From a virus, in UHGV virus genome UHGV-0143082: a stretch of DNA of 32,928 bases; one strand, written 5' to 3'. The notes beneath the pieces are model-generated. The model worked only from the letters and a program-made list of their open reading frames with translations, had not been told where the DNA came from and searched no databases. Shown in pieces: positions 75 through 29,501 of this stretch. Each line of letters opens with the position of its first letter. Position 1 is the first letter of the stretch. The translations under genes were made by a program, and so were the position numbers.

Positions 75-3023
75 TTAGTGCTTCCCTTCTATTAAGTCTA
101 ACCTAGCTTTTATTCTTTCTATTTCTCTGCGCTGCCATGCCGCCTCGATATAGAATAAGAGATCAGGTCTGACCCCCCATCTAGATCCTGCTGGCGTTAT
201 TTCAACGCGCTCAATGATGTCTTCCATTACCATCACTGGATTATCATCCTCATCAACAATGATGCTCCCGTCATTATCAGTCAGCGGTATTTCCCTTTGG
301 CCAGTAATGACGTCATCATATACTGCGGGATAATCGTCATAGCAAAGAAAGGCATAGCGGCATGTTGTGCTTTCTTCTTCCATGAGTCCGTGAGAAATAA
401 GAACATCACGAAGTTGCTGCGCGATTACACCATGATGTATCCTCGCCCCTTCTTCCCCCTTTATAGCGACAGCGTTCAGCCATTTATAAGCGATATACCT
501 GACGTCACCCCAGGCATCCAGCAATGCTTCGTCAGGAGAGACCGCCTCTGTCTTTAATGTTCCGTCACTGGTAACCACAGGATTGGAGCCAAGATAAACT
601 GTCGAGAACCTGTTTCCCGGACCACCAAGAGCATTTACATTATCAAGATAAGGTTTAACATCTCCGTTCTCAAAAAGATGTTCGAGTGCGTTATATACCG
701 CGCGACGTGGAGTACTGCTTCCGGAACCATGCAACGTTATCATTGCGCCATCTGCTGAAGACGTTGTTTCACCGCCGCTAACGATTAATCTCTGAGCGGT
801 AACATCATCAGACGGTACTTTCTTCGCAATAATGGCGTAATTACCCTCAAGTTTGACTTCCGCGCGAACTTGTCCTGATGTACCTGCATGGACAGTCAGT
901 GACTGGACGGCAACATCATCTGTGAAATCAACGGGTACAGGAACCGTCCTCACGCCTGACGTCGACATAAAAGTAGGAAGCGTTCTGTTAGGAGTGGCTC
1001 CGTAGACAAAATCCCTTGAAACAAATTCTTCCTGTTTAATTTTCACCCTGAAACAATACAAATCAGCCGGGTGACCATCGTGAACATAAGGATATTTTCT
1101 GTTGTTATCCCCTATGCTCCATGGGTTTAGAAAGTCTTCCCCACCGAAAATGTAGTACAGCCAGTTGTCTTTGATACAAACTGAACCAACACCAACCGCA
1201 GAGTTAACTATTCCGCCCTGATAAATCTGATCAGTAACATTAACCCACTCTACATTATCCAGACTCCACTCATTGACGTTAACTCTGGTCATAAATGTTC
1301 TTGGATAATTTCCTGCATAACGGTTATCAGGTTCTCCTCCTTCCCACTCACCAAATGCGCGCTCACTGCCAAAAATAATCAGCTCATCGCCAACTTTGGC
1401 AAAAGGAAGGTTTGAGTGATGAACATTATTTGGGAAGCGAAGAGAATTCCATGATGTACCTAAATCAGAGCTTCTGTGCAATGAACTACCGGGTTGAGTA
1501 CTTAATGTCCCCCTGGTCGTCAGATACAGAATGCCATCATAATATTTTACACATGGCTCAGATGCATTCGCCTCATATTCTGCAGGTATGCGTCTGCGAA
1601 CAAAGCTACCAGGAGAACCGAAAGCATCAGAGAAATAGAGTATCCCAAGCTCGCGTGGACCAATATCACCATTATGGTAGCCAACAGCAAAACTGTTATC
1701 GCTAATCGTCGCAAAACTGTGAATCTCAGTAACAGGAGTGCTTCCGTCAACAAAAGAAGAAATAGTTCCAAGACTGGTTTTTCTCCATGGTGACGAGTGA
1801 AATGATGTACCAAAACTCCAGTATCTACCCTCGTTATTCTGATCCACATCCTGAGTATTTTGCGTCGTAACTGTAAAAGTATTTTTATCAATAACAGTAG
1901 TCACCGTCATATTCCCGGTAACACCTGTAACACCAGAGTTTGAGAAGTTGACAAAATCACCAGCAAATAATCCGTGATCAGTAATGCGAATATAAGCGAC
2001 TTGCTGATTTGCTGCTTTCGTTATACCACCATAAACGCGAAGGCTGCGACTCATTGGACGATCCCACAACTCTGCAACCTGCAGTTTATTTCCGCGCACG
2101 GTCCGCGTCTCAATTACAGCAAAAAGGCGATTTCTGACAACCCCCATACTCATGCAGTGATAGTTAACTGTGGGATAGTTTTCATGTAAATCTGTAAGCC
2201 ATTCCGGCGTTGTCCAGGTCTTCCCGTCATCTCCTGAGCGAACCCATGCAACATGGAGGTTATTTACACCATGGCGGTCTCCAGCCATAAAAGGCGCATA
2301 GATGACATTGTCATATACAAACGTTTTATCCTGCGTCCAGGCGTTGTACCACGGTGTATCTGTAATTTTAAATAACTCTCCTTGGATAAAATCTTCAGAA
2401 GCATAAAAAAGAGGCTGACCCGGTATTCTCTCAAATAAAAAACGAGCATTTTTAAATCGACTGACATCTGGAAGAGTTGATACTTTAAAAGTAAGCCCTC
2501 GCCCATCTATCTTTTCACCACCTGTTGCAACAGAAAGTAATTCTGATAGAGCTGATGTATCATCATGAACACCATCACCAATAGCCCCCCAACCTCTTAC
2601 ATCATAACTGTCTCTCCATCTTGCTATCTGAAGTTTTGGGTATTTATTCGCTCCATCTGGGTCTTCTAATTGCTGTCGTAACTGATCAGGATCATACTTC
2701 AGCACATTCGGAAAATAGAACTGCTGCACACCGTACGCATCATAAACAGCCATAGAATGGCCCTGTACAGTAACGAATTTGGCAATCTGTCCGTTATATA
2801 CCGGATATCCAGCAGCGTTAATGATGATTGGTTGCGATACAGGAACGTGAGAGCCGTCTTCGTTCTCCACATAAACCTGAATCTGGTTTTCAGGATTTAC
2901 AGGGTCAGTGTCAATTTTACCGATATAAATTTTACCATTGGCTACGGCTTTAAAAGAACGAGCCATAGTGAAGAGTTGCGAAGGCATACTCACTACAACA
3001 TTGGCATTTATTGAATCTGTCAT
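75..3023 (-). CDS. Tailspike protein: P22 gp9-like head-binding N-terminal domain fused to endosialidase-like body with C-terminal intramolecular chaperone domain
   Basis: 982 aa; N-terminal ~115 aa closely resemble P22 tailspike ([45 protein letters not shown]); two Asp-box motifs SGDDGKTW and SSDLGTSW; C-terminal region resembles the self-cleaving chaperone of endosialidases. Confidence 0.8.
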
Positions 3024-3081
3024 TTAATTTGCTCCAGATGCAAGGAATCGCCGCAGCATGGCTACGGTGAATTTTGGGCAT

Positions 3082-3104
3082 AAAAAAACCCAGCCGAAGC
3101 TGGG
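3082..3104 (-). terminator. Rho-independent terminator downstream of ant
   Basis: GC stem cccagc/gctggg with cgaa loop followed by a T7 run on the minus strand. Confidence 0.5.
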
Positions 3105-3123
3105 TCGTTGCGTTGGTTATCTG

Positions 3124-4059
3124 TCAGTAGTTATGTACTGAAGGAGGTAATTCTTTATTCTTAAGTCTCATCCATGCGGAAAGATTCGTTGGTCCGTCTG
3201 GCTCATTAATATCAACATCTCGTGTGTGGTTTATTAAAACGTCTCTCGCCATTCCGATAACATACGAGAACTCATGACCGTAGTCGTAGCATCTGCCGGA
3301 ATAGTTCGATTGAATTTGTTTTAATGCCGGATACAGTTCGCGGAATAATGCCTGTGAACGGTTGGCATAATCCCATAGCCATACAAGGCTGTTTGCTTCT
3401 TTTGCAGAAAGCTCGTTGACTTTCCTCTCTTGTTTGCCGATGAACTCTCCTTCAAGCGGAACGCGAGCTGCAAGTGACAGTGCTTCGGTAAACTGCTCCT
3501 CACTAATTTCTTTGTACGAACATCCAAAATGGGATTTCAGTGACGACCACATGGTGATCATCGCCTTAGCCTGTTTTTCTTTTGGCAGAGACTGACCGCG
3601 ACTCATGACGAGTTGTTTAATGGCTTCCTGCTGTTCAGTGGTGATTTTACCCTGCAACGCCTTTTTAGCTTTGCGTGGGTTAACTACATGGCCTTTAGTC
3701 CAGTAGTCATGCAGCACGCTAAAGCATTCCTCCTGGTACTGAATCAGTTTATCACGGATGTCAGCACGAACTTTCTCAGGGTTGATGCTGAACAGCCATC
3801 CATTTAACTTCTTCAAAGGAAGGCAGAGTAGCTTACGAAGCTTCCCATCAGCGGCAACCATGTTCATATGAACACAGTTGAATTTGCTAATCTGCTTCAT
3901 GAGTTTTGTTTGCTGCGTTGACCAGCTCATTCCAAGGTTTTCAACGATTGGCTTCATCGCAACATATGCAACTCCGGCAGCCATGGCGGTGATAATTTGC
4001 TGACCGTTGAATGGTACGTAAGAGGTGTTCACTGCTTCTAAAATTGCTATACTATTCAT
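3124..4059 (-). CDS. ant: Antirepressor Ant
   Basis: N-terminus [21 protein letters not shown] resembles P22 Ant; sits between arc and tailspike as in P22 immI. ORF-track start at 4089 is a TTG; the ATG at 4059 with upstream GGAGA is preferred. Confidence 0.75.
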
Positions 4060-4130
4060 GTTGGTTTTTCTCCAAGGATTTACCGACAACCGAAGCCCTG
4101 ACTGTTACCGCAGTTGGGGCTTCAACTTTT
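4060..4130 (+). ncRNA. Candidate sar-like antisense RNA covering the ant ribosome-binding site
   Basis: Extended -10 TGcTATACT at 4045-4053 on +; predicted start about 4060; hairpin 4092-4123 (gaagccc/gggcttc) followed by U-rich tract; arrangement mirrors P22 sar. Confidence 0.3.
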
Positions 4131-4346
4131 CACTTCTTTAAAGTGCCTACCTTCTACAGTTGCTCTGAGATAAAAATTCTTATCTTTACCGTTTAGTGCT
4201 TCCCAAGCATCAACAATGCACTTATTACAGATGTGGACTTCTCGATAACCAATAGCTTTCCTGTCAATATTAGTGAACATAACAGCTTCTTTATCTGTCA
4301 ATGTGGATGCATGACAGAAGTCGCAATCTATATAAGATACCTTCAT
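4122..4346 (-). CDS. Small zinc-ribbon-like protein of unknown function (two CxxC pairs)
   Basis: 74 aa; CDFC and CNKC motifs; ATG overlaps the arc stop (ATGA), suggesting translational coupling; not present between arc and ant in P22 as I recall. Confidence 0.5.
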   Translation of the reverse strand: MKVSYIDCDFCHASTLTDKEAVMFTNIDRKAIGYREVHICNKCIVDAWEALNGKDKNFYLRATVEGRHFKEVKS

Positions 4347-10268: not shown

Positions 10269-10724
10269 CTATCTCCCGTGATTCAGGAATTCGATTAGTT
10301 CTTCGCGTGTGGCGCTGTAAAACGTCACGTCATCCACGCCTTTGAAGTATTTCTTGATGGTTCCTACACGATTAAGGCCAATCATTGCGCAATACATCTG
10401 ACCGTGGCGGAATTTGCGTGCTGCGAACGATGTGACGCACTGAACGGTGGTGTTAGTCAGAATGTATCTCCAGAAAGACAGCCCGATTTCCTTGCTGAAG
10501 CCGCGAATCTCTGGCAGGTACATGGCGTGGCAATCAAAGGTCAGCGGCTGAATCTCCTGATAGTAAACAATTCCGCCGAACTGCCCGTGCACGTTCACCT
10601 CAAAGTAACGGCATTCAGGTTTGTAGTCATATCCATCACCGTTGTTGCTCCCGGCAATAATGTCAGGGTGATTTCCGACTGCTTCTATCAGGTCGATGTT
10701 TCGCGTTGGTTTGAATGTAATCAT
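10269..10724 (-). CDS. P22 gp14-like virion/DNA-stabilization protein
   Basis: 151 aa; immediately downstream of tail needle gene as in P22. Confidence 0.7.
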   Translation of the reverse strand: MITFKPTRNIDLIEAVGNHPDIIAGSNNGDGYDYKPECRYFEVNVHGQFGGIVYYQEIQPLTFDCHAMYLPEIRGFSKEIGLSFWRYILTNTTVQCVTSFAARKFRHGQMYCAMIGLNRVGTIKKYFKGVDDVTFYSATREELIEFLNHGR

Positions 10725-11425
10725 CAGTCAATCAGCCCATGTAATCTAAGTGCCGTTTCAAGCGCCAGAATACGCTGCCGCGCCTGCTGCAAACCTGTAG
10801 CGAGAGCTGCGACTTCGGATTGCGTGTACGTAGTGCCGACAGTGTATGACTGGTTAGCGTTGAATGAGCCAAGAAGTGGCGTACCTGTGGCTGCAGTCCA
10901 TCCGGTCTGCCTTGCTCCAACGACCTGAATTCCATCAACTGAATATGATGTTTTTACATCCAGCGGTGACGCAAGAGACTGCGATTCGGTTACGGTTTTC
11001 GATACGTAATCACTCTTAATGTCAGATACATCGCTTTCTACGCCATCCAGTCTTTGGTCAACAGTGACCAGATGCGCCTGAATATCGATAACCTCATCCA
11101 GCAAGTAATCAACATCGCTACGTAGTACGACTATCTTCCCTTCGGCGGTTGTTAACCTGACCTCAAGGAGATTTATCGCTTTTGTGTTTGCGGTGATTCT
11201 TGCATCGTGATCTGCCAGCTCGACGTCCTGTTCATCGTTTTTCACCTGAGCATCGTAAGCGCCCTGACCAGCCTGATTTGCCTTCCCGGCAATTGCGCCA
11301 ACATCAGCACCCTGATTTATGACATACAGCAGGTAAGACTGGCTGAATATATTGCGTGGCAAAATTGAAGCATCAAGGCGCGCAGCCTGAACCGCGACAG
11401 GATTATTCAGTGATGAATCCGCCAT
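10724..11425 (-). CDS. Tail needle protein, P22 gp26 homolog
   Basis: [25 protein letters not shown]...[31 protein letters not shown] and C-terminal ...LRLHGLID match P22 gp26. Confidence 0.9.
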
Positions 11426-12843
11426 TACTCAATCCTTATCTGGCAGCCAGACAGAGTGACAGGTGACTTCGTGATAACGCGCAATTTGAAGCCGACATTT
11501 TTCCTGATTCGCCCGACACGCTTCCACAAAACGCGTTTGTCGTAAACGAACGGTTCATTCTGCTCAATCATCTGCTCACGACCGTAATTGATGCCGTCAG
11601 TGGTTGCAGAGAGAAAAAGGCGGTCAGCATACTGCGCAACGCCAGTTGAAGATTCAACTTCAAGGTCGAAAACTCTGGCGTTATCTGCTTTGAAGAGTGG
11701 AGTAAACAGCAGGTGTTCCTGCTGCTTGTCGTACTGGCTGCTGATATCGAACTGCAATTTCCCGGTAACAGATTCCAGCTTATCGCCGCACGTTATCTGA
11801 TTGCCTTCGTAAATGAAGTCGATAGCGCGGTACACATCGTCATACAAGCCTGTTTTCAGTACACACCATTGCGGACCATTGGCGCTTGAAGATGCGTCGT
11901 ACACGAGGACGTGGCGCGGAAGGTGGATAATCAGCAGTTCATGCGCATCAAATCGCAGCGATTCCATCACACCATCAGCCAGTTCATCAGCAGTGTAGGA
12001 GCGGAGGATTTTCTCAATGCTCGCGCTGGCGATTGGTGATACCTGACCGGAGCCGATGATGTATACAGACGGCGCACCTGTTGCCGGATTGCTGATGAAC
12101 GCATACGAGTCAGCAAACGGCGTTTTGCAGTAGGTCCCGGCAATGCCTTTCTGCACCATCAGCGATGGCTGGGCGACATACAAAGCAGCACCAACGGTGG
12201 TTGCACCAGTCAGGGAGAAATATTCAATCGTCGATGAACCAAAGCAGACGATGAAGTCTCGCCATGTCCCGATACCGATGATGCCGTCCGGCTGCGATTC
12301 TGCGCGATATTGTGCACTGTATCGGTCAGGGTGCGATTCGTCTTCAAGGTCAGTGATAAACCATGAATCAGTTCCGTCTTTTGACCACGCATAACGCCCA
12401 CGTAAGCGAGTAATGTCGCGAACTGAACCTAACTCATACTGCGTGAATCCACTGTCTGTAGGCCAGTTTGAGACGGTTTTAACCGTGCCATCATAGCGAT
12501 ACTCGACCAGTTGACCATTAACGCCTACCGCCTGTGATGTTCGACCATGCGCCATTGATACGCGACCACTTCCGGCAACATCACCAACCTCGCTTTCGCC
12601 CTTATACAGCTTGCCACCACACACGCGATAAACAGCATTCTGCGCCATGTTGTACTCGACGCCTCGCGATACGCCGTTCACATCAGAACGTTTGGCAATG
12701 CCCGGGAATGAGCGAAGATATCCGCTGCTGTTGAGGATTTCTTTGGGTGTAGCCAACATATTCACTGGCAGATAGTCGATATAGTCGGCGTTTCGAAAGT
12801 CTTTGCCGACACCTTTCATAAGCGGAAGTTGCTGAATCGTCAT
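11425..12843 (-). CDS. Tail hub/accessory protein, P22 gp10 homolog
   Basis: 472 aa, same length and position as P22 gp10. Confidence 0.8.
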
Positions 12844-12852
12844 TTATTCACC

Positions 12853-13314
12853 TCACGTACTCGGTTCATCTTTCTCGATGTAAAACCGATTCCACGTAAA
12901 CGCGCTTTTGTTACCACTACCGCGAGGCATGTCATTTCGCCGCTCAAGTGGTGGTATTTTGGTTAAAGCGATGCAGATTGTCTGATATGCGCTGTCAGCA
13001 GCGGTAAGGAGAGCATCCGACGGCTGAATGACGTTATCCATGCACACTTGCACAGCGAGTTTCAAAGCGACGCCATCATTTGCCCATGCAGGGATACCTG
13101 AATCATCGTCAGGTAACGGCATGATGCCGTTTTCTGTATCAGCAAACTGATATCCAAGCTCGATACCTTTCGCCTGCCATGCTGCCATCATGTCTTCGAG
13201 GTCATTAATGGCATCTTCAATTGCCTGAGGGTCGGCATCTGTCAACGTGGCATTGGAATACAGCCCGGCTTTTCGTAAAGCCTTTAGAACGAGATCACCC
13301 TTCGTTTTCGCCAT
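12853..13314 (-). CDS. Head-to-tail adaptor, P22 gp4 homolog
   Basis: 153 aa; synteny between coat and gp10. Confidence 0.8.
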   Translation of the reverse strand: MAKTKGDLVLKALRKAGLYSNATLTDADPQAIEDAINDLEDMMAAWQAKGIELGYQFADTENGIMPLPDDDSGIPAWANDGVALKLAVQVCMDNVIQPSDALLTAADSAYQTICIALTKIPPLERRNDMPRGSGNKSAFTWNRFYIEKDEPST

Positions 13315-24390: not shown

Positions 24391-24989
24391 GCGGCCTCAC
24401 TTCTGCTGTTTCGCAGGTCTTTGAGTTTCTGCTGATACTCCGCCTTGATGGCCCTGCACTCTTCGACAGTCCAGCGATGGCGGTTATGGTTTGATTCGAT
24501 TTCGTCTACTGCTTCCTGCCCGATGCGGCTAATCAGTTCGACGCGATACGGAACGAGATTCCCGCTTTTGTGCTGGTTGCACACCACGCATTGCTTGTGA
24601 ATATTGCGTTCATCAAATCGGAGTTGAGGCGCCGCAGCAGTTGTCCGGTAATGCCCGGCATCCCACTGAGCAGACGTGAGCGTTCCGCACGAGATACATG
24701 GTAAGTCGCGGTCTCTTTCTCTGATGAAGGCGTTTACAGCTTGTTGGGCTTGTTTAATCCAGTAACTGCGGGGCTTTAAGGCGAGTTTTCGAATCTTAAG
24801 TTTATCTTTCTGTTTCTGCTCCTCTCGTCGTCGTTTCTTCTCTGCTGCCTTTTCCGCTTTTTCGCGTTCTTTGCTTCGTCGTTCGAGTGCTATCTTGGTT
24901 CCACAAATCTCATTACACCAATATTGATTTTGATATTTTGGTATAAACCATTCATTGCAACATTTACATTTCCTTCGATAGATTCGCAT
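24387..24989 (-). CDS. ninG: NinG (Rap-like recombination endonuclease), N-terminally remodelled
   Basis: From ATG 24989 (strong SD AAAGGAG): [15 protein letters not shown]... then near-identical to lambda NinG from [18 protein letters not shown] onward. Confidence 0.8.
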
Positions 24990-25530
24990 AAGTGCTCCTT
25001 TCGTTGCCGGAAAAATCACCGTAATACTTATCTCGGGCTTCTTCAGCAACTAGTACCGCTAACTCCAGATCATCAAAGCATCCGAAGTGTTTACTCTTGC
25101 CATGGAAACCTAGCCTAACATTCCATTTTTTCTGTCGTTTGTGCCAAGTAACTCCTCTGCAACCTGATTTGCTATTCTTTCGGATCCTTATATTTCTTGA
25201 ATTTTCTATTGGCAGGCATTCTCTTAAATTTTCTGGCCTATTGTCGGTCCTAATTCCATTAACGTGGTCAATTTGACCAGCAGGCCAACGATTATGAGTT
25301 ATGTAAAAAACTAAGACGTGAGTTTTATATCTACGCCCATCTATCATGATCATTGAATAACCGTTGGAATCAAAAGTTCCAGCAACACTATTTAATGCTA
25401 TCCTTCCCTGAGTGGGAACTTTCCATCTAAATACCCCGGTAGATTTATCGAAACTTAGTAACTCAAATATCCTTTTAACAGTTAAATCTTCTCTTTTACG
25501 GTTACATCGTCTTCGCGCTGGTTTAGCCAT
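24964..25530 (-). CDS. HNH homing endonuclease with AP2-like DNA-binding domain, inserted at the 5' end of ninG
   Basis: 188 aa; HNH motif [16 protein letters not shown]; AP2-like [17 protein letters not shown]; first 29 nt identical to the lambda ninG start (MAKPARRRC) before an AT-rich insert. Confidence 0.75.
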
Positions 25531-27129: not shown

Positions 27130-29022
27130 TTAATACTCCGTCACGTTTTCCTGTCGCCACGCCTCGTCATATTCCGATTTCGGCATATTGGCGATGTAGC
27201 TATATGGCGATCCTGATTCAAGTTGCAGGAACTGGTGCGATTGCTCGTCAAGGAACAACGGGACACCACCTTCCCAACCTTCGCCGTTACGTTGTTTTTC
27301 AAGCATCAAAACAGATGCCGGAGATGCCAGTAGCTGTTCGTCCTTCTCTGACATCTTTTCACCACTCTGAACTCTCTGTAACGCTCTCTCGCGAGCCTTG
27401 TTACGCCAGATGATGAAAAGGTTGTCTGTCAGGTCTGTTATCGCTCCAGAGCCTTTTACGTCCATTTTCCCGGTTGGTTTTTCTTCGCTGTCTCCTTTTC
27501 TGGAGTGAGTAACGAGAATGACGTGGGAGTTTGTTTTGTTTTTGAAGTCGCAAATCGAGTCAACAAACGCCTTCTGCCCGTTATAGTCATCGTCGCCTAT
27601 GCCACATTTCATCAGGCTGTCGATGATGAATAACTGGATCCCGTATCGGCGGCGAGCGTAGTCGAATATTTCGATCAGCCTGTCGGCTTTCGCCGTTCCG
27701 GTCAGGCCAAACACCCAAAGTCTTTCGTCATAAAATTTAAATGCAGAGTCAATTTCCAGCACTGGCGGCATCTTGCAGCACGTCGCCTGACGGGTAAGGC
27801 GCTTAAGGAGAATACCAGGCTTCAGCTCAAGTGACGCGATGCACGTCTTCACACCCTGACGCATTGCCTCAAGTGCCATATGCCCGACAACCTCCGTTTT
27901 TCCGTGACCGTTCACACCATTGACCAGCGTCAACTCGGCCTCACGGAACTGGAATTTATCTGCCAGAGATTCCCACGGTGGATTAAACAGATACTGCTGC
28001 TTGCCGTAGAAAGCGTTGATAGTGTCCTGGTAAAACTCTCGCGCGCTGTAGAGTTCTTCAGGATCGAAGTAGGATGCCGTGCCGATGTACTGCCAGATTT
28101 CATCCTCGGTAACACCGTTCATCAGGCATTCGTTGATGTCTTTGTACGGCAGAGTAACAAGACGGCAACGATGTTCACCGAGTCGGCTTGCGATTTCCCT
28201 TGCGGCTTCACGACCAACATCATCAACGTCCATCGAGATGAATATTTCCTCAAACCTGTCGAGGTTGTGATACTCAAACTCAATCCACTGCTGCTTAGCG
28301 CCTTTCCCGCCACCAAACGGTACGGATAACGCCGAGATGCCGTATTGCGCATAGCTCATACAATCAATTTCGCCTTCGCAAAGTACAACCGCCCTCACGC
28401 CAGCGTCCAGAGCCTGCCATCCGAACAGACAAGGTTCGCAATCACCTTCTGCCATAATGACTTTCTTCCCGCCCGGGCGCTCAGTGCTGATTCGCTTTAC
28501 CTGCAACAACTCACCATCGCGTTTGTACGGAAGCACCAGAGCATCCAGTTCTCGCTCTCCATTCCACACCTTGCCGCTGACAACCTCGTAGCGCTTTACG
28601 ACTTCTGGCGATATGCCACGCGATTGCAGGTACTCAAGATGGGATTCTGTTCTGGTAACGTAGCGGGCAATTTTCTTGCGATCAGGTCTGGAGAATTTCT
28701 TCTCACGTCTGGCATCGAAATGGTGATCGTCATCCTTGATACCGAGAAATGCTTTCGCTTCCTGCATAGCCTGATGCAGGTTAATTCCTCGACATGCCAT
28801 CCACAAATCAAGCATGTCACCGCCGTCTCCCTCAGCGAAATCAGCCCATTTTTTCTTGCCGCTAAGGTTGACCTTAAGGCTGTTTCCCTTGTCACCGTTG
28901 ACGTTACCGGCAACCCACTCATGCCCCTCTTTCTTGCCGTTTGGCAACAGGTGCGGAGCCACCCTGTCAACCTGCGCCCAAAGCAGGTCGCTAAGTTCTG
29001 ATGGACTCAAAGGTGCCTCCAT
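27130..29022 (-). CDS. Bifunctional primase-helicase replication protein
   Basis: 630 aa; TOPRIM-like acidic segment (VLCEGEIDCMSY) in the N-terminal half, helicase-like C-terminal half. Confidence 0.75.
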   Translation of the reverse strand: MEAPLSPSELSDLLWAQVDRVAPHLLPNGKKEGHEWVAGNVNGDKGNSLKVNLSGKKKWADFAEGDGGDMLDLWMACRGINLHQAMQEAKAFLGIKDDDHHFDARREKKFSRPDRKKIARYVTRTESHLEYLQSRGISPEVVKRYEVVSGKVWNGERELDALVLPYKRDGELLQVKRISTERPGGKKVIMAEGDCEPCLFGWQALDAGVRAVVLCEGEIDCMSYAQYGISALSVPFGGGKGAKQQWIEFEYHNLDRFEEIFISMDVDDVGREAAREIASRLGEHRCRLVTLPYKDINECLMNGVTEDEIWQYIGTASYFDPEELYSAREFYQDTINAFYGKQQYLFNPPWESLADKFQFREAELTLVNGVNGHGKTEVVGHMALEAMRQGVKTCIASLELKPGILLKRLTRQATCCKMPPVLEIDSAFKFYDERLWVFGLTGTAKADRLIEIFDYARRRYGIQLFIIDSLMKCGIGDDDYNGQKAFVDSICDFKNKTNSHVILVTHSRKGDSEEKPTGKMDVKGSGAITDLTDNLFIIWRNKARERALQRVQSGEKMSEKDEQLLASPASVLMLEKQRNGEGWEGGVPLFLDEQSHQFLQLESGSPYSYIANMPKSEYDEAWRQENVTEY

Positions 29023-29501
29023 GCGTTTCCTCTGCGGATTGTGGAAATTTGCATTTCACTCACTCCGTATTTAGTGGATAGTTCGCTTAGTTTCATACCA
29101 ACAGAATTCCTGATATCAATCACATCAGTTTCAGATAGGTTTGCCCTACCATTAAAAACTCCCTTTGCGCTTTTCAGTCCGATGCTAAAAGCATGTTTTA
29201 AATTCTCTGAGCAGGTACACCATTCCAAGTTCCAAATGGCGTTATCCGATTTGTCGCCGTTGATATGATTTACTTCTGGCTTGCAATACGGATTTGGGAT
29301 AAATAATTGAGCTACAAGACGATGAACTTTTAACGTCTTCTGAATCCCATCGGAACACAAAGTGACTCTTAGATAACCCTTGTTATCCGGAGATGGATTC
29401 AAAAACCTGCCTCTTAAATGTGAATAAACACGACCGTCTTTGGTTACAGAGTATTTACCCTCATAACCAGGTATATATTCTCCAACTTCAAGGCTCATCA
29501 T
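29007..29501 (-). CDS. HNH homing endonuclease (NUMOD4-like N-terminus plus HNH)
   Basis: 164 aa; YEGKYSVTKDGRVYS motif; HNH core VNHINGDKSDNAIWNLEWCTCSENLKHA; AT-rich gene; SD GAGGGA before ATGATG. Confidence 0.75.
   Translation of the reverse strand: MMSLEVGEYIPGYEGKYSVTKDGRVYSHLRGRFLNPSPDNKGYLRVTLCSDGIQKTLKVHRLVAQLFIPNPYCKPEVNHINGDKSDNAIWNLEWCTCSENLKHAFSIGLKSAKGVFNGRANLSETDVIDIRNSVGMKLSELSTKYGVSEMQISTIRRGNAWRHL

Follow-up and report, generated by a model that had tools for sequence, protein, structure and literature searches.

The stretch of DNA analysed here, virus genome UHGV-0143082 with a length of 32,928 nucleotides (nt) and referred to as the window, carries at positions 75..3023 of its minus strand one intact ATG-initiated open reading frame (ORF), which encodes a tailspike protein of 982 amino acids (aa) without an internal stop. 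Searches against Pfam placed six domains on this protein, every one above its curated cut-off, which together with pattern scans and alignments to solved structures define the following layout.

75..3023, minus strand: tailspike coding sequence, 982 aa plus stop (from the ORF listing), judged an allele of siaK1 of phage CUS-3 by nucleotide and protein identity
2667..3023, minus strand: particle-binding domain Head_binding (PF09008), domain aa 1-119; Pfam match aa 4-114, E 1e-64, profile 3-113/113
2586..2666, minus strand: linker or neck, aa 120-146, ending at the motif [13 protein letters not shown], common to other P22-like tailspikes
2385..2585, minus strand: endosialidase N-terminal extension End_N_terminal (PF12218), aa 147-213; E 8.7e-37, profile 1-67/67
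1035..2384, minus strand: six-bladed beta-propeller catalytic domain End_beta_propel (PF12217), aa 214-663; E 1.7e-232, profile 1-367/367
1803..2051, minus strand: polysialic-acid-binding domain End_beta_barrel (PF12195), nested in the propeller, aa 325-407; E 1.2e-46, profile 1-83/83
2214..2237, minus strand: Asp-box 1, SGDDGKTW, aa 263-270, found by regular expression and aligned with SGDDGQTW of endoNF
1449..1472, minus strand: Asp-box 2, SSDLGTSW, aa 518-525, found by regular expression and aligned with SRDIGQTW of endoNF
570..1034, minus strand: stalk (triple beta-helix/beta-prism) End_tail_spike (PF12219), aa 664-818; E 7.5e-78, profile 1-160/160
78..569, minus strand: C-terminal intramolecular chaperone/autoprotease (Peptidase_S74, PF13884), aa 819-982; Pfam match aa 819-879, E 2.4e-10, profile 1-57/58

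A preliminary description, which gave no strand for the gene, had viewed the protein as a chimera of a P22-type anchor and an endosialidase body, and this view is borne out by both the Pfam and the solved-structure matches. Its proposal that the first ~115 residues are close to the P22 particle-binding domain agrees with the match of residues 1 to about 120 to the N-terminal domains of Sf6, P22 and related tailspikes of known structure, although Sf6 gp14 (90% identity, E 2.9e-65) is nearer than P22 gp9 (74% identity, E about 5e-50). The remainder had been described as unrelated to the P22 endorhamnosidase, and in the Pfam and solved-structure searches we found no resemblance to the body of that enzyme beyond residue ~128. 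Instead, residues 146-818 match the crystal chains 1v0e and 3gvl of endoNF, the endosialidase of the lytic phage K1F, with E = 0 and an identity of 66% (439/665 aligned residues), which is highest in the propeller (71%), followed by the barrel (67.5%), the N-terminal extension (61%) and the stalk (56%). The protein search that had been proposed as a check thus finds a body consisting of full-length endosialidase domains. The two sialidase Asp-boxes noticed earlier are the sole matches of the pattern S-x-D-x-G-x-x-[WFY] in the entire protein, and the suggested likeness of the C-terminal region to a self-cleaving chaperone is reflected in the Peptidase_S74 assignment and in the match of residues 699-980 to 3gw6, the structure of the endoNF stalk together with its chaperone (E 5.5e-94). 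Scores of this size are well outside anything expected by chance, and the 66% identity to the crystal chains, along with the match to 3gw6, settles the fold of the protein.

The resemblance to endoNF (PDB 1v0e, 3gvl, 3ju4; 3gw6) thus extends over the N-terminal extension, the propeller with its nested barrel, the stalk and the chaperone domain, and it includes the two Asp-boxes, identical catalytic and critical residues and the context of the cleavage site, ...NP[VI]VT/S, where the slash marks the cut. Differences concern a seven-residue insertion in the tailspike (FVDGSTP, aa 424-430) and a loop of the chaperone domain that is eight residues longer. With the tailspikes of the lederbergviruses P22 (gp9), Sf6 (gp14) and HK620 the protein shares the N-terminal head-binding domain and, as in these phages, its gene closes the late operon and comes after immI with arc, mnt, ant and sar. 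In contrast, receptor binding falls to an endosialidase propeller instead of the right-handed beta-helix O-antigen endoglycosidase of P22, Sf6 and HK620, and this body is followed by a cleavable C-terminal chaperone, whereas the solved P22 and Sf6 tailspikes match over the N-terminal domain only. The same design has been described for the CUS-3 protein, whose anchor is common to P22, Sf6 and HK620 and whose body is common to K1F, while the K1F endosialidase itself carries a T7-type N-terminus that is unlike the anchor found here (Stummeyer et al. 2006, as cited in a passage of PMC5380687).

The properties of the active site can be judged from a study of the K1F tailspike by deep mutational scanning, in which H350, R549, E581, R596 and R647 are named as key to catalysis, with Q330, D331, H527, S528, K585 and N699 being critical as well (PMC12632334). 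We have mapped these residues by a HMMER alignment to the endoNF crystal chain, where the numbering was right at 12/12 positions tested, and found all 11 of the 11 to be kept. The catalytic equivalents in the tailspike are H251, R457, E489, R504 and R555, all located in the beta-propeller, and the other critical equivalents are Q231, D232, H435, S436, K493 and N607.

A similar correspondence is observed in the chaperone domain, where the autocleavage dyad consists of a serine and a lysine five residues further on, and where N912 and G956 of the K1F enzyme have been reported as essential (PMC3742443). In the tailspike, this dyad is found as S819 and K824 with the same spacing, aligning with position 911 (an alanine in the 3gw6 chain) and K916, and G865 corresponds to G956. 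Since the endoNF crystal chains stop at a threonine that aligns with T818, cleavage is predicted between T818 and S819, which would divide the protein of 109.3 kDa (calculated for the uncleaved chain) into a mature subunit of 90.7 kDa and a fragment of 18.6 kDa. In the stalk, R837 of endoNF is kept as R745; Q853, which we take to be a stalk-site residue and to which we have given no weight, aligns with M761.

The closest characterized relative is SiaK1 of CUS-3 (ABQ88383.1/CAJ29292.1; CP000711), a protein of the same architecture with 981 instead of 982 residues. The siaK1 gene is 98.9% identical to the tailspike DNA over 99% of the gene length, and the proteins share 99% identity. Their 14 differences, one of them a residue inserted close to the N-terminus, all lie outside the mapped critical residues. 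The GenBank record of siaK1 describes an endosialidase tailspike protein with endo-alpha-sialidase activity under the evidence code IDA (PMID 16689790), and the enzyme is tabulated at 109 kDa (PMC5380687), equal to the mass calculated for the tailspike. The likeness continues into the flanking DNA. As in CUS-3, ant is the upstream neighbour and a bsq1 spacer with a terminator hairpin lies in between, with positions 3024-3123 being near-identical to the 100 bases 5' of siaK1, inside the annotated bsq1 boundary sequence. On the other side, the 74 nt 3' of the stop codon, where the window ends, equal the spacer between siaK1 and neuO of CUS-3 at all but one position. By these comparisons, the tailspike is an allele of the already characterized endosialidase SiaK1 and hence a member of a known and ordinary class. 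Still closer is the RefSeq protein WP_419876821.1 from the chicken E. coli strain VTB96933v, which is identical at 980/982 positions with the differences S310R and P422S, the latter being located in the propeller loop that adjoins the seven-residue insertion relative to endoNF.

We also observed a deviation at the very start of the protein (aa 1-6; 3009-3023, minus strand), where the tailspike reads MTDSINAN as opposed to MTDITAN in CUS-3, P22 and other relatives. It results from a 3-nt insertion with nearby substitutions that is common to the chicken-strain alleles, and divergence from CUS-3 is highest within the initial 36 nt of the gene.

In light of these properties, we regard the protein as a tailspike that both binds and destroys its receptor, carried by a temperate prophage of the P22-like type (Lederbergvirus) with specificity for E. 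coli K1, and as an allele of the CUS-3 endosialidase SiaK1. We attribute a probability of roughly 0.93 to this assignment, which builds on the domain architecture, the conservation of critical residues, the near-identity to an enzyme recorded as active and the co-occurrence of its carriers with K1 genes described below. The proposed mechanism draws on homology, given that an enzyme with a record of experimental activity is 99% identical, and on the integrity of the defining residues that were tested. In this mechanism, the C-terminal chaperone domain (aa 819-982) would guide the folding of three chains into a trimer and, once the triple beta-helix stalk has formed, the S819/K824 dyad would cut between T818 and S819 to release the smaller fragment and leave the mature subunit. 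The head-binding domain (aa 1-~119) would dock the trimer on a hub of the gp4/gp10/gp26 type that is encoded in the window. The beta-propeller with H251, R457, E489, R504 and R555 is then expected to bind and cleave the alpha-2,8-polysialic acid of the K1 capsule, an activity predicted from the identity to CUS-3 SiaK1. Sites for the binding of polysialic acid, located in both the stalk and the nested beta-barrel, would assist the propeller, and the cleavage would let the virion tunnel to the outer membrane.

Several points weigh against this assignment. K410 of endoNF is replaced by G311 and N912, reported as indispensable to the function of the chaperone, by D820, the window contains no host DNA, which relegates the capsule type of the host to evidence from carrier genomes, and it is from relatives that we infer trimerization, autocleavage, the activity of this particular allele and the inducibility of the prophage. 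With respect to the first of these residues, K410 was found to be dispensable in the context of the phage (PMC12632334), and the glycine is also present in CUS-3 SiaK1, where the position is invariant. With respect to the second, CUS-3 likewise contains an aspartate at position 820 (also invariant), and the protein MYRF self-cleaves despite an aspartate (D579) at the equivalent position (PMC3742443). In view of MYRF and CUS-3, aspartate at this site looks like a permitted variant.

The preliminary description had also pointed to an E. coli K1 host, which is not readable from the window itself and is supported indirectly by its closest relatives. In strain VTB96933v, a complete K1-type capsule locus directly follows gspM (yghD). 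This locus comprises, in order, a kpsM/kpsT-type ABC transporter, a neuD-type acetyltransferase, neuB, a neuA-type cytidylyltransferase, neuC, a neuE-type gene and an alpha-2,8-polysialyltransferase, followed by kpsS, kpsC, kpsU, kpsD, kpsE and a kpsF-type gene. Among 5,426 complete E. coli genomes, the polysialyltransferase gene was detected in 329 and the endosialidase body in 191. The best 60 of the 329 polysialyltransferase matches and the best 60 of the 191 endosialidase matches have 12 accessions in common, compared to 0.66 expected if both were independent (hypergeometric P about 1e-12 for these best-60 lists) and about 10.9 predicted for complete nesting; since each list is ordered by its similarity to a single lineage, the overlap is a sample rather than a census. 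The endosialidase carriers elppa4, GPEC856 and GPEC403-625 are also among the polysialyltransferase matches listed, several endosialidase carriers are named O1:K1 or O2:K1, and about 20 records of CUS-3 siaK1 name K1 strains as host. The co-occurrence of endosialidase carriers with the polysialyltransferase gene is strong but not exhaustive evidence for a K1 host.

The genetic surroundings of the tailspike are those of a P22-type prophage. The features that are closest to the gene or that concern its attachment to the virion are given below.

3087..3106, minus strand: strong hairpin resembling a terminator, with a stem of 8 bp and a T-run, from a terminator scan; it separates ant from the start of the tailspike gene
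3124..4059, minus strand: antirepressor gene ant of immI, directly upstream of the tailspike; PHROG 245, E 5e-99
4060..4127, plus strand: sar antisense RNA, full length, overlapping the ant start region as in P22 immI; Rfam RF00262, 97.4 bits against a gathering score of 43
10724-11425, minus strand: gp26-like needle; PHROG 1219, E 2.9e-113
11425-12843, minus strand: gp10-like hub gene; PHROG 578, E 2.2e-229; homologue annotated gp10 in VTB96933v
12853-13314, minus strand: gp4-like hub gene; PHROG 637, E 5.4e-70; homologue annotated gp4 in VTB96933v

The start of ant (936 nt, position 4059) was taken from the RefSeq annotation of a 99.9% identical locus, whereas the mechanical ORF list begins at a TTG at 4089. 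By analogy with P22, the gp4-, gp10- and gp26-like tail-hub proteins (10724..13314) would be the docking partners of the head-binding domain. Since the terminator hairpin is located 5' of the tailspike, its expression would require read-through or a promoter missed by our consensus scan, which around the gene yielded 9 promoter-like sites compared to 9.7 expected and is thus uninformative. The tailspike gene is the last of a complete late region of the P22 type, and the immI region lies upstream of it. The late region contains genes for the small and large terminase subunits, portal, scaffold and coat, the gp4-, gp10- and gp26-like proteins and three ejection proteins, and the immI region consists of mnt- and arc-like genes, ant and the full-length sar. 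Farther along the window we found a lysis cassette as well as Q and Nin genes, together with genes for a methyltransferase, a primase/helicase and an O-like initiator, and also cII and the gene of a cI-like repressor. A scan for tRNA genes found none in the window, and neither an attachment site nor an integrase is contained in it, with its end located inside the immunity region.

This inventory bears on the possibility that the intact gene resides in a defective, cryptic prophage, a recent relic that is never assembled into infectious virions. In favour of such a relic, this particular combination of modules has never been shown to be viable, with at least 80% of the window being found together in none of the complete E. 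coli genomes and phage records, and the genes for integration, excision and recombination would lie outside of the window. However, every expected late gene (terminase, portal, scaffold, coat, gp4, gp10, gp26, ejection proteins, lysis cassette and Q) is a full-length ORF with a full-length family match, and the tailspike itself shows neither frameshift nor stop and has retained its critical residues, which makes a cryptic origin unlikely.

Considerably less probable still is a protein that binds polysialic acid but that has, through its substitutions with respect to CUS-3, become inactive or altered in its specificity, for example towards O-acetylated polysialic acid or another sialic polymer. 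The 14 differences from SiaK1 and the S310R and P422S exchanges relative to the closest RefSeq protein leave room for such a change, particularly since residues of loops and the stalk were found to be able to shift the discrimination among K1 strains in the scan of the K1F protein (PMC12632334). Yet none of these differences is located at a mapped catalytic or critical residue, R310 is also found in the tail protein of the Uetakevirus phage vB_EcoP_ZX5 (ZX5), and the differences are scattered as in ordinary allelic variation at 99% identity.

The tailspike of a temperate K1 prophage, as we continue to regard it, also offers a view on the exchange of its modules. In the tailspike of phage Gally, a lederbergvirus with an unrelated body, residues 1-160 are 90% identical and the sequences diverge thereafter, while the similarity to endoNF starts at residue 146. 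Conversely, the 1039-residue tail protein of ZX5 is essentially identical between residues ~176 and ~968 (810/847 over the whole alignment), with 99.3% nucleotide identity over nt 525-2917 of the gene, and the same 1039-residue version is found in a prophage of APEC O1 that adjoins yfgI. The ZX5 and APEC O1 protein differs by an unrelated N-terminus of ~190 residues, which serves another virion type, and by its divergent last ~14 residues, and it also differs in its neighbourhood, with holin and endolysin genes downstream and the prophage being located next to yfgI. The comparisons with Gally and ZX5 therefore place the left joint between residues ~150 and ~176, just after the motif [13 protein letters not shown], and the right joint would be located ~14 residues from the C-terminus. 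A continuous ORF is all that speaks for a single ancestral protein with a P22-like N-terminus obtained by common descent of the whole tailspike, an explanation that is hardly credible given the anchor of Gally on an unrelated body, the nearly identical body of ZX5 and APEC O1 behind an unrelated N-terminus, and the same body of endoNF behind yet another one (PMC5380687, in a passage citing Stummeyer 2006), comparisons in which module exchange is directly visible. That epsilon15-like prophages have come to share this endosialidase module very recently is a mildly new point.

Many K1 genomes contain 2-4 endosialidase loci, a number that hints at polylysogeny, with K1-specific prophages that differ in their virion type residing in one strain.

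The preliminary description had further assigned the element to a CUS-3-like prophage, which holds for its tailspike end but not for its backbone. CUS-3 covers 61% of positions 1-25000 of the window in 6 pieces with 96.6% identity, collinearity with CP000711 does not extend genome-wide, and the replication, nin and immunity regions differ. In positions 8000-32928, none of the 5,426 complete E. coli genomes and none of 50,697 phage records carries at least 80% in one place, and the best match, strain elppa4, reaches 76% coverage at 99.1% identity. The low coverage by CUS-3 and the lack of any genome above this threshold thus define the backbone as its own mosaic of P22-like modules rather than CUS-3 itself, and the presence of a siaK1-type tailspike on a backbone other than that of CUS-3 is again a mildly new point. 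The closest carriers, VTB96933v and elppa4, contain an acyltransferase gene after the tailspike, in the position of neuO, and beyond it an integrase followed by P4-like satellite genes (a TOPRIM/DUF927 primase, Icd-like, psu and ogr/delta). In VTB96933v, the integrase of the prophage abuts tRNA-Thr/proA at the end opposite to the tailspike, unlike in CUS-3, where the order attL-int-neuO-siaK1 places the integrase beside neuO and siaK1. We consider the chances to be about even that the element is an undescribed mosaic, in which a siaK1 (+neuO) cassette was placed on another P22-like backbone that has a primase/helicase module for replication and whose integration is of the tRNA-Thr/proA type, beside a P4-like satellite, and that the same module (at least 99% nucleotide identity) moves between P22-like and epsilon15-like K1 prophages with its left joint just after the conserved GDGxxDDT motif.

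The value of these results is mainly that of a correct annotation, which marks the prophage as specific for K1, the type of capsule found on E. coli from neonatal meningitis and on avian pathogenic strains. The annotation also marks the prophage as likely to carry neuO, the switch for O-acetylation of the capsule. Knowledge of the module boundaries could help in the engineering of capsule-targeting phages or of reagents that cleave polysialic acid. The boundaries also illustrate how one anchor is common to unrelated tailspikes and how one endosialidase body is at least 99% alike in a different phage genus. If the mosaic described above were correct, K1 strains would provide a natural example of very recent swapping of receptor modules among co-resident prophage types. 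Our study does not advance an open question, as the chimeric nature of the CUS-3 protein was already described in 2006, according to the citation in PMC5380687.

Further observations concern other parts of the window and of its relatives. Between arc and ant, a cysteine-rich ORF of 74 aa (CDFC...CNKC; 4122-4346, minus strand) is annotated as hypothetical in the homologous RefSeq locus, and the CUS-3 record shows no annotated gene between its mnt genes and ant. In VTB96933v, a retron St85 system is found beyond the satellite-type genes. Finally, the window contains two ORFs for HNH endonucleases, which may be mobile insertions of the homing type, the first (24964-25530, minus strand) lying in the nin region with the methyltransferase and NinG on either side and the second (29007-29501, minus strand) between the O-like initiator and the primase/helicase.

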